Shown here: piece after piece, positions 16,161 through 18,274 of the stretch
How the letters are laid out: each line of letters begins with the position of its first letter
Numbering within the stretch: position 1 is the first letter of the stretch
Assembly: GCA_046758745.1 (NCBI GenBank)
Contig: JBHIAV010000003.1
Coordinates: 19,247-83,246 of the forward strand
DNA: 64,000 nucleotides
Reading direction: 5' to 3'
DNA from: Gemmatimonadota bacterium
Lineage (GTDB): Bacteria; Gemmatimonadota; Gemmatimonadetes; Palauibacterales; Palauibacteraceae
Position numbers and translations under genes: made by a program
The notes under the pieces: generated by a model
What the model was told of the DNA's origin: nothing
Seen by the model: only the letters and a program-made list of their open reading frames with translations
The model's database searches: none

Positions 16161-16826
16161 TCACACGGGCCACTCCTCCCCGCGCCAGCACATCTCCCAG
16201 AACCGCCACTCGTAACGGCTCGAGAGGACGAAGAGATCGGTCAGACGCCGGCGCTTCTCCGACCCCACCCCCTCGACGACCCGGTTCGTCTCGGCCTGCA
16301 GCCACTCCGATGCCTCGCAGAACTCCCGGGAGGTGTACTGCGCGATCCAGTCGGCGTACCGCTGATCGGCCGGGGGGCTCGATTCGGCGAGATGGGCAGC
16401 GATGTGCGCGTAACCCCACGCGCAGGGGAGGAGAGCGGCGAGGAGATCCGCCATGTCCCCATCTGCCGCCGTGCGAACCAGAAAGTCCGTGTACGCCCGG
16501 GTCGTCGGCCACATGGGCTCGGCCTCCAGCTCCTCGGCCGAGATCCCGAAGCGGGCCGCGTATTTCCGGTGCAGCTCCATCTCCGTGTTCAGGGTGAGAT
16601 GGAGGGCGGCGGCGAACCAGCCCATGGACTCCAGCCGGTCCGCCTTCGCGGCCCCCCATGCGAAGATGCGCGCGAACTCCTTGAGGTACAGGTAGTCCTG
16701 CCTCACCCATCGGCCGAACAGCCCCTCGTCCAGCGTTCCGTCGCCGATCCCGACGACGAAGGGATGGCGGAGCTGGGCCTCCCAGATGGGCCGCGCGGCC
16801 TTCAACAGCTGGTCGGTGAACGCCAC
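16161..16826 (-). CDS. tenA: Thiaminase II / aminopyrimidine aminohydrolase (TenA_C type)
   Basis: HPFV..IGDG, QDYLYL, catalytic Cys in LLPCAWGY, YEWRFWEM. Confidence 0.93.
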   Translation of the reverse strand: MAFTDQLLKAARPIWEAQLRHPFVVGIGDGTLDEGLFGRWVRQDYLYLKEFARIFAWGAAKADRLESMGWFAAALHLTLNTEMELHRKYAARFGISAEELEAEPMWPTTRAYTDFLVRTAADGDMADLLAALLPCAWGYAHIAAHLAESSPPADQRYADWIAQYTSREFCEASEWLQAETNRVVEGVGSEKRRRLTDLFVLSSRYEWRFWEMCWRGEEWPV

Positions 16827-16829
16827 CCC

Positions 16830-17534
16830 TCAGCCGCGCGTCGGAACGGGGCGCACGCCCGCGGCGGCGAGCCCCGGGAAGGACTCGAGGCCCGGCCAGC
16901 TCTCGCCCTGCATGGCGAGCTCCCAGAAGGCCACCTCGTACTTCGTCGTCACCTCGAACAGGTCGGCCATCCGGGCGCGCGCGGCGGGTCCGACCTCCCC
17001 CGCCAGCGTGTCCAGCTCCCCCTCCAGGTACATGACGTACTCGCGAAACGACTCCCCACCCCACTTCTCGACGAACGGGTACCAGGACGAGGACGGATCG
17101 ATGCCCTCCTTCACCACGCGCCACGAATCGTGGTACGCCTTCTCGGCCACATAGTACACGGTGTACGCCTCCGCGTAGCTCGCCGCATACGCCGTGGCGA
17201 TGAGGAACTGCACGTACGCATGACAGATGAAGGAGGGGGGCGTGCCCTTGAGCTCGACTCCGAGCGCGGACGCGCGCTCCTCGAACAGACGGAGCTCCTG
17301 ATGGAGCGCGGCCAACGCGTTCGTCAGCGGCTCACGATGCCGCGCGGGAGCGCGGGGGATGAGCGCCGCCGTGAAGGGGATGGCCGCCTCGACGAAGAGG
17401 TAGTCCTGGCGCATCCAGGTGGCGAACTTCTCGGGGGGGAGGGTCCCGTCACGCGTCTCGCGCAGGAACGGGTGGGCCAGCATGAAGTCCCACAGCGGCC
17501 TGAGCCGCTCGAGCTGCTCGGCGCAGAATCCCAT
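16830..17534 (-). CDS. TenA family paralog lacking the catalytic Cys (TenA_E type)
   Basis: HPFL..DG, QDYLF, EKAYHDSW, YEVAFWELA; no Cys at the TenA_C position. Confidence 0.88.
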   Translation of the reverse strand: MGFCAEQLERLRPLWDFMLAHPFLRETRDGTLPPEKFATWMRQDYLFVEAAIPFTAALIPRAPARHREPLTNALAALHQELRLFEERASALGVELKGTPPSFICHAYVQFLIATAYAASYAEAYTVYYVAEKAYHDSWRVVKEGIDPSSSWYPFVEKWGGESFREYVMYLEGELDTLAGEVGPAARARMADLFEVTTKYEVAFWELAMQGESWPGLESFPGLAAAGVRPVPTRG

Positions 17535-17540
17535 GTTCGA

Positions 17541-17589
17541 CTCCCTCCGCCGGCATTACCCGGGCAGGTTCAAAGGGTGTGATCTCAGC
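17541..17589 (-). promoter_or_regulatory. TPP riboswitch, 3' portion only (J3/2, P2', P4, P5, P1')
   Basis: Minus strand reads GCTGAGATCACACCCTTTGAACCTGCCCGGGTAATGCCGGCGGAGGGAG directly before the TenA ATG. No GGGG/GGGTG 5' strand upstream. Confidence 0.8.
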
Positions 17590-17595
17590 GGGCGG

Positions 17596-17624
17596 ATCAT
17601 ACCGGCAGGGGCGCGTGGTGAAAA
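17596..17624 (-). promoter_or_regulatory. Putative sigma70 promoter for the tenA operon
   Basis: TTTTCA-N17-TATGAT on the minus strand. Confidence 0.5.
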
Positions 17625-17716
17625 GGAGCCTGGAGGACTTCCGAGCGTTGGCCGGCCTGCCGCGACCGGCGCTACATTGGGTGCGAAACTTTCCGACCGT
17701 CAGCGGGAGGAGAGCC

Positions 17717-18274
17717 ATGCGACTGGAAGGAAAGCGCGTCGCGTACCTGGTCGAGGAAGGCTTCGAGGACCTCGAGTTCTGGGTGCCCGTGATGCGGCTG
17801 CGCGAGGAAGGCGCGGAAGTGGTGGTCGTGGGAACGGGTCGGCAGGAATCGTTCCGTGGCAAGCATTGTCTGAAGGCGACCCCCGACACCACGGCGGATG
17901 ACGTGCGGGCGGAGGACTTCGACGCGGTGGTGATCCCGGGCGGATGGGCCCCCGACAAGTTGCGGCGATTCGAGAGCGTCCTCAGGCTCGTGCGCCAGGC
18001 AGCCGAGCTGGACCGGGTGGTGGGCGCGATCTGCCACGCCGGATCGGTTCCGATCAGCGCCGGGATCGTGCGCGGCCGCCGGGCCACCGGTTCCACGGGA
18101 ATCAAGGACGACCTCGAGAACGCCGGCGCGATGTGGATCGACGAGCCCGCGTTTCGCGACGGCAACTTCGTGTGGGGGCGCGTGGTGGAGGACATCCCCG
18201 ACTTCTGCCGGGAGCTGGTCCGGGCGATCGCCACGCACGTGCCGAGCGCTCCACGGGCCCAGGCGGTCGGTTGA
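17717..18274 (+). CDS. PfpI/DJ-1 family (type 1 glutamine amidotransferase-like)
   Basis: GFEDLE, VIPGGWAPDKLR, AICHAG, VWGR; SD ggagg before ATG 17717. Confidence 0.92.
   Translation: MRLEGKRVAYLVEEGFEDLEFWVPVMRLREEGAEVVVVGTGRQESFRGKHCLKATPDTTADDVRAEDFDAVVIPGGWAPDKLRRFESVLRLVRQAAELDRVVGAICHAGSVPISAGIVRGRRATGSTGIKDDLENAGAMWIDEPAFRDGNFVWGRVVEDIPDFCRELVRAIATHVPSAPRAQAVG

Follow-up and report, generated by a model that had tools for sequence, protein, structure and literature searches.

A probable TPP riboswitch relic upstream of tenA1-tenA2 in a Gemmatimonadota genome

In TPP aptamer structures, the P2-J3/2-P3 arm holds the pyrimidine moiety, while coupling of binding to the expression platform is the role of P1. 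Another small RNA of the thiamine pathway, the HMP-PP riboswitch (thiS motif), senses a precursor, and this class is described as an aptamer embedded in a terminator (PMC6478431). On tenA-associated TPP variants or riboswitch remnants, we found nothing specific in the literature. Here, we analyze a TPP-like element in a 64,000-nucleotide stretch of DNA (the window) from a Gemmatimonadota bacterium (GCA_046758745.1, contig JBHIAV010000003.1, positions 19,247 to 83,246). The source genome is a 3.07-Mb metagenome-assembled genome (MAG) that is 87% complete, and the nearest TenA available for comparison is 71% identical. An earlier note, made from the letters of the window, had described a near-consensus TPP 3′ part whose end doubles as the TenA Shine-Dalgarno (SD) sequence, with no GGGGTG-type P2 5′ strand upstream and with TTTTCA-N17-TATGAT where the 5′ strands should be. 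Our analysis bears out each part of this description.

A partial TPP element upstream of tenA1-tenA2

The element lies on the minus strand at 17525-17626, and its gene context is that of thiamine salvage, directly preceding tenA1-tenA2 (Table 1). An Rfam scan of the whole window at the gathering threshold returned no match. In a permissive scan of 17300-17900, RF00059 was the sole match, covering 17525-17626 on the minus strand at 32.1 bits (E=1.9e-4), where the gathering cut-off for this family is 54.3 bits. Infernal aligns this segment with non-canonical pairs throughout P1 and P2. The earlier note had also proposed a search with RF00059 in truncated mode, and we found that 17525-17590 alone gives a 5′-truncated match to model positions 29-105 with 41.5 bits and E=1.1e-7, which is likewise under the cut-off. 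Comparing the two scores, the upstream 36 nt thus cost the alignment ~9 bits. All strings quoted in the earlier note were found: GCUGAGA at 17583-17589, ACACCC at 17575-17580, UUUGAACCUG, CCCGGGUAAUGCCGGCGGAGGGA, and the ATG at 17532-17534. Read 5′ to 3′, the minus strand from 17626 to 17532 is CCUUUUCACCACGCGCCCCUGCCGGUAUGAUCCGCCCGCUGAGAUCACACCCUUUGAACCUGCCCGGGUAAUGCCGGCGGAGGGAGUCGAACAUG.

The window element retains ~65 of the 100 nt of an aptamer. It keeps consensus sequence in J3/2 (CUGAGA), the P2 3′ strand, P4/P5, and the 3′ strand of P1. GCUGAGA is the same in 39/39 complete relatives, and P4/P5 is present together with J4/5 and J5/4 (CCUG-C-CCGG-GUAAUG-CCGG-CGG-AGGGA). The end of this hairpin, J5/4 with the 3′ part of P4, supplies the SD-like GGAGGGAG. 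The 5′ strands of P1 and P2 are missing. At the position of the P2 GGGG(U)G the window has CCCC, whereas all 39 of the 39 complete relatives pair ACCC with GGGG, and no GGGG or GGGU run occurs on the element’s strand in the whole 182-nt intergenic region. For P1, the 3′ strand GUCGA is there, a GUUCGAC-like 5′ strand is not present, and Infernal’s best 5′ partner (UCACC) is mismatched at 2/5 positions. P3 can be paired by Infernal at 4/5 positions (GCCGG/CCCGC), with a 5′ strand that lies upstream of the predicted transcription start and may be promoter spacer.

The motif TTTTCA-N17-TATGAT (17624-17596) is the only sigma-70-like site on either strand of 17400-17850; 0.0 such sites are expected, with none in 50 shuffles. 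A leader beginning at the start predicted from this motif would be ~55 nt long, and its predicted fold is unremarkable (z = -0.63). On the plus strand, the DJ-1/PfpI gene may have a divergent, back-to-back promoter (TTGGCC-N19-TACATT, within 17640-17716), which was found by eye and was not called by the scan.

Table 1. Positions of the element’s parts, the promoter-like motif, and the flanking genes in the window
Feature	Position	Strand	Basis
tenA2, 221 aa, TenA family (3.7e-49), PCAWGY cysteine motif, conserved tandem partner	16161..16826	-	
tenA1, 234 aa, TenA/THI-4 family (PF03070, 1.4e-28), Ala at the catalytic Cys position of TenA2	16830..17534	-	
P1 3′ strand GUCGA, between SD and AUG, 5′ partner missing	17537..17541	-	Infernal; GUCGA or GUCAG in relatives
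Shine-Dalgarno-like GGAGGGAG, made up of J5/4, the 3′ strand of P4, and the first part of the P1 3′ strand	17541..17548	-	Sequence
P4/P5 pyrophosphate-sensor hairpin CCUG-C-CCGG-GUAAUG-CCGG-CGG-AGG, J4/5 of 1 nt	17544..17568	-	Infernal, comparison
P2 3′ strand ACACCC, partnerless	17575..17580	-	Sequence, Infernal
J3/2 CUGAGA, pyrimidine-pocket strand, consensus	17583..17588	-	Infernal, comparison with relatives
Predicted (inferred) transcription start, 6-8 nt downstream of the -10 box	17588..17590	-	
CCGCCCG, putative P3 3′ strand remnant (compare L105 UCGCCCGG before CUGAGA)	17589..17595	-	Comparison with relatives
-10-like hexamer TATGAT, 17 nt after the -35; in a rival alignment, loop of a surviving P3	17596..17601	-	Promoter scan, alignments
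-35-like hexamer TTTTCA, preceded by CC, like CCC-TTTxCx upstream of complete orthologous aptamers	17619..17624	-	Promoter scan
Divergent DJ-1/PfpI-family gene upstream	17717..18274	+	

Tandem tenA1 and tenA2 genes are found widely within the family, and the two paralogs of the window are 30% identical. A Cys-less TenA1 and a Cys-type TenA2 may thus be paired for two salvage steps. No relative examined has a DJ-1/PfpI gene upstream of tenA; because this neighbor is missing from all of them, the whole intergenic region cannot be aligned by synteny. Elsewhere in the genome, the only intact TPP riboswitch is found upstream of thiC (PF01964, 1.7e-186), with 67.7 bits at G000:C8:91050-91150 (L001:1501-1601). 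TPP control is thus kept over de novo synthesis of pyrimidine and apparently not over salvage.

Complete and truncated tenA leaders in relatives

The earlier note had suggested comparing orthologous leaders. We assembled 80 tenA1 loci from species-representative genomes, plus five leaders from sister genera. A TPP aptamer is present in 35/80 tenA1 loci, 34 of them detected by motif and the last (L105) missed by the motif and scoring 39.8 bits; 45/80 have none. P4/P5, CUGAGA, and GGGGYG occur together in 34/34 motif-detected aptamers, and with the five sister-genus leaders, which are also complete, all 40 other tenA-leader aptamers examined are complete. We found that the 3′ part of the window element matches 39 complete aptamers (38 tenA leaders and the genome’s own thiC switch) at every conserved block except J4/5, which is 1 nt in the window element and 2 nt in local relatives. 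We considered this 1-nt J4/5 as proof of decay and rejected it as such, since it is common in complete TPP aptamers of other groups in a metagenome scan.

Most complete leaders also carry a promoter-like motif just upstream of P1. In 24/37 complete leaders, the P2 GGGG is preceded by a TAnnnT whose start is 17-20 nt away, and a T-rich -35-like block, often CCC-TTTxCx, lies ~17-18 nt upstream of TAnnnT; from their position, the two would form a promoter that starts transcription at P1. For this comparison we relied on a census of TAnnnT positions, as a promoter scan at threshold called none of four orthologs’ promoters. TATGCT in L105 and TATGAT in L114 stand at the ancestral position, 9-12 nt before P1. 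L105 and the window tenA1 fall in the same unresolved fork of the TenA tree. The L105 leader reads CCCTTTTCT-N17-TATGCT-TTCCCCTCGACAGGGGTGCCGGGTGGG-TCGCCCGG-CTGAGA, with 27 nt between TATGCT and TCGCCCGG, and the window leader reads CCTTTTCA-N17-TATGAT-CCGCCCG-CTGAGA, so that the -10-like hexamer lies 7 nt before CUGAGA in the window versus 35 nt in L105. Three complete switches (L135, L145, and L141) have GGGAG followed by ATG after 8-9 nt, the same layout as in the window. Because they share this layout, we read the ancestral design as a translational switch, in which the P1 3′ strand would lie between SD and AUG and the SD would be part of the aptamer.

The complete leaders vary in other ways. 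The aptamer of L105 (1060-1157), which scores 39.8 bits, is complete, but its pyrophosphate arm is remodelled (CCUGGCCGGGUAAUGCCGAACCAGGGAG, with the J5/4 CGN replaced); CCGA-AAAGG forms resembling this arm are present in other phyla. A hairpin of 28-62 nt and of unrelated sequence occupies J2/4, from the P2 3′ strand to P4, in 8/38 tenA-leader TPP aptamers: L030, L059, L034, and L058 from sister genera, and L080, L129, L132, and L141. The four sister-genus leaders, which were the ones scanned, reach 33-38 bits with RF00059, which is under the cut-off; Infernal aligns them wrongly, treating the P2/P3 arm as absent. We considered the 67-nt Rfam matches in G023, G008, and G024 as natural mini-aptamers consisting of P4/P5 only, and rejected this reading: these are complete leaders with a 45-62 nt J2/4 hairpin. 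L139, L133, and L125 have tiled repeats of TTACTGATTAC / GGTTACCGGTCACCGG-like motifs just upstream of the promoter region, 60-120 nt ahead of the aptamer.

We mapped the riboswitch onto a TenA tree of 87 proteins. It is present on the deepest branches, well-supported branches require at least seven losses, and parsimony gives 13 changes for the label “none”. A set of close relatives forms a graded series in the ~120 nt upstream of the ATG at 1201. L139 is complete; L138 is truncated, with nothing but CGCAGGGAGUCAG / CGCAGGGAGUCAGCC and the expression platform left after the upstream gene’s stop codon; and L122 has the platform only. The 5′ truncations of L138 and L122 are independent of the one in the window. 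Loss of the 5′ side with the ribosome-binding end kept is thus recurrent, and the window element is the least eroded case that we saw. Where the riboswitch is lacking, the gene ahead of tenA is often an Fe-S (sdhB-like) one or encodes a product ending in ...GGLVTLEKAHVVLYR.

A probable riboswitch relic and the alternatives to it

Our data indicate that the leader is probably the remnant of a TPP riboswitch that formerly controlled translation of tenA1-tenA2, and expression of these genes is now predicted to be independent of TPP. The earlier note had listed a decayed switch converted to ligand-independent expression among its explanations, and the comparison supports this one, with 40 complete aptamers in other tenA leaders and a promoter motif only 7 nt from CUGAGA in the window. 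In the ancestral switch, P1 of the TPP-bound aptamer would have closed over the SD-AUG region. The 5′ third is missing, with the 5′ strands of P1 and P2 (GGGGUG in P2) and probably also the 5′ strand and loop of P3. The most likely cause would be a single ~27-nt deletion that placed the P3 3′ strand directly after the ancestral -10 box. The start of transcription from TTTTCA-N17-TATGAT would be at ~17589, at GCUGAGA, and the resulting ~55-nt leader would be unable to build P1, P2, or the pyrimidine pocket and would not respond to TPP. With the 5′ strands missing, TPP-dependent occlusion of the SD-AUG region is predicted to be lost and tenA1-tenA2 to be expressed without TPP control, from an SD that would still come from the old J5/4 and P4 sequence. 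Against this explanation, the 3′ part has hardly decayed, so that the event must have been recent or some constraint must act; the one local peculiarity, the 1-nt J4/5, is a natural variant elsewhere.

The size and place of the lesion are uncertain, because both MAFFT and a profile HMM favor, over a deletion, an alignment without gaps that makes UGCCGG-UAUGAU-CCGCCCGC a surviving P3 and ends the homology exactly 5′ of UGCCGG. On this alternative, P3 was retained (GCCGG/CCCGC, its loop containing UAUGAU), and replacement or mutation affected only the sequence 5′ of UGCCGG, possibly by a rearrangement that brought in the DJ-1/PfpI gene or by inversion of the quasi-palindrome CA-GGGG-UG; the promoter would be new, its -10 box having evolved from the P3 loop, and the outcome would be the same. 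We hold this history to be possible but not likely. MAFFT and nhmmer align UGCCGG...CCGCCCGCUGAGA to the P3 of relatives with similarity stopping at the GGGG/UG boundary, Infernal pairs 4/5 P3 positions, and the upstream DJ-1 gene is unique to the window locus. However, retention of P3 needs the old promoter to have been lost and both hexamers to have arisen, by chance or selection, at an exact 17-nt spacing, and no relative has an AT-rich P3 loop. Since CCGG or CGGG is a frequent end of promoter spacers in relatives, GCCGG ahead of TAT has no diagnostic value. The inversion leaves 4/15 mismatches: deriving CCCCUGCCGG from GGGGUGCCGG by mutation or inversion accounts for 11-12 of 14-15 positions and is needless given the promoter homology, and we therefore rejected it as an explanation in its own right and keep it only as a variant of the P3-retained route. 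Roughly rated, the deletion comes out ahead of P3 retention, and P1 and P2 are missing under both.

That the junction is an assembly artefact or a minority strain variant, with the real population carrying a full switch and ~27 extra nt (…CGACAGGGGUGCCGG…), is very unlikely: the sequence does come from a MAG contig, with no close relative confirming the junction, but the flanking genes are intact on a contig of 110 kb, no long collapsible repeat lies at the junction, and comparable truncations occur in independent assemblies (L138 and L122). We rate still lower the earlier note’s suggestion of a variant fold, in which a working TPP-family or thiamine-precursor sensor would use an alternative structure (e.g. 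P2 formed by GGUAUG/CACACC) and an unrecognised upstream start. The strands that contact the ligand (J3/2, J4/5, and J5/4) match the consensus and a full-length Infernal alignment exists (E=1.9e-4), yet that alignment is non-canonical through P1 and P2, falls 9 bits below the 5′-truncated one, and offers no acceptable alternative for either helix. GGUAUG/CACACC contains an A-C mismatch and leaves 9 nt at the place of P3, a P1 5′ strand is absent, and the start would have to lie upstream of the sole promoter-like site, where we found no other. Nor did a second example appear in the 80 orthologous loci (35 with an aptamer), the five sister leaders, or 80 metagenome matches. Even less credible is a new, ligand-independent translational brake, in which an 18-bp hairpin of a longer transcript (CCC.CUGCCGGUAU.AUCCG with CGGGU.AUGCCGGCGG.GGG) would sequester the SD. 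This hairpin is the minimum-free-energy fold of 17525-17626, but the z-score is only -1.57, its -33.9 kcal/mol duplex is matched by 8.5% of shuffles and by promoter regions of relatives at -30 to -38, and its 5′ arm is upstream of the predicted start; we rejected it as a feature, since it does no better than shuffles or orthologs.

Two further readings assign the near-consensus 3′ part a present function. We give very little weight to the idea that the 55-nt leader stays near consensus because it still senses, as a minimal pyrophosphate- or Mg-dependent translational element or as a half-aptamer completed by an RNA in trans. Least plausible of all is a true split aptamer, which the earlier note had raised, in which a separately transcribed 5′ half (the 5′ strands of P1, P2, and P3) pairs in trans with the leader. 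Nothing but the intact 3′ half speaks for it; RF00059 at E<=1 matches only the thiC switch and the window element in this 87% complete genome, and genome patterns of GGGGTG with a P3 or P1 partner give background matches only. The closest resemblance, at C3:5866, falls within an apparent reading frame and lacks a P3 partner. The search thus found no orphan 5′ half.

Comparison with known systems

Taken together, the element is most likely a broken TPP riboswitch, a case of ordinary regulatory decay and not a new sensor or mechanism. The value of this locus is as an example of how riboswitch control disappears. The comparison points to the origin of one remnant, in which the 5′ strands were lost beside a promoter and the ribosome-binding part was retained. 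For annotation it urges caution, as sub-threshold “half” riboswitch matches can be genuine remnants. The at least seven losses of TPP control at tenA, while thiC keeps its switch, suggest that pyrimidine salvage has often been freed from TPP feedback in Gemmatimonadota.

The HMP-PP riboswitch represents the alternative ligand type named in the earlier note. Unlike that class, the window region has no terminator-like site, and Rfam reports no family but TPP; neither the Rfam library nor the terminator scan gave evidence that the window element is related to it. The closest system is the TPP riboswitch (THI element, RF00059) of the translational OFF type, with the SD in the 3′ end of the aptamer. 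The window shares with it J3/2 CUGAGA, the P2 3′ ACCC, P4/P5 with J4/5 and J5/4, the P1 3′ strand, and a thiamine-salvage gene downstream, and it has the GGGAG-8 nt-AUG layout of the complete relatives L135, L145, and L141. It differs from RF00059 in scoring below the family cut-off, in lacking the 5′ strands of P1 and P2 and probably half of P3, and in having a promoter-like motif where the missing strands belong. Because the P1 and P2 5′ strands are missing, general knowledge of aptamer structure predicts that the window RNA cannot form the pyrimidine-sensor helix. The remnants at L138 and L122, relatives of the complete L139, resemble the window in having lost the 5′ side and kept the 3′ end or platform with the ribosome-binding region. 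In L138 and L122, the deletion reaches the upstream gene and tenA is probably co-transcribed with it, whereas the window operon has retained a promoter of its own and a much larger part of the aptamer.
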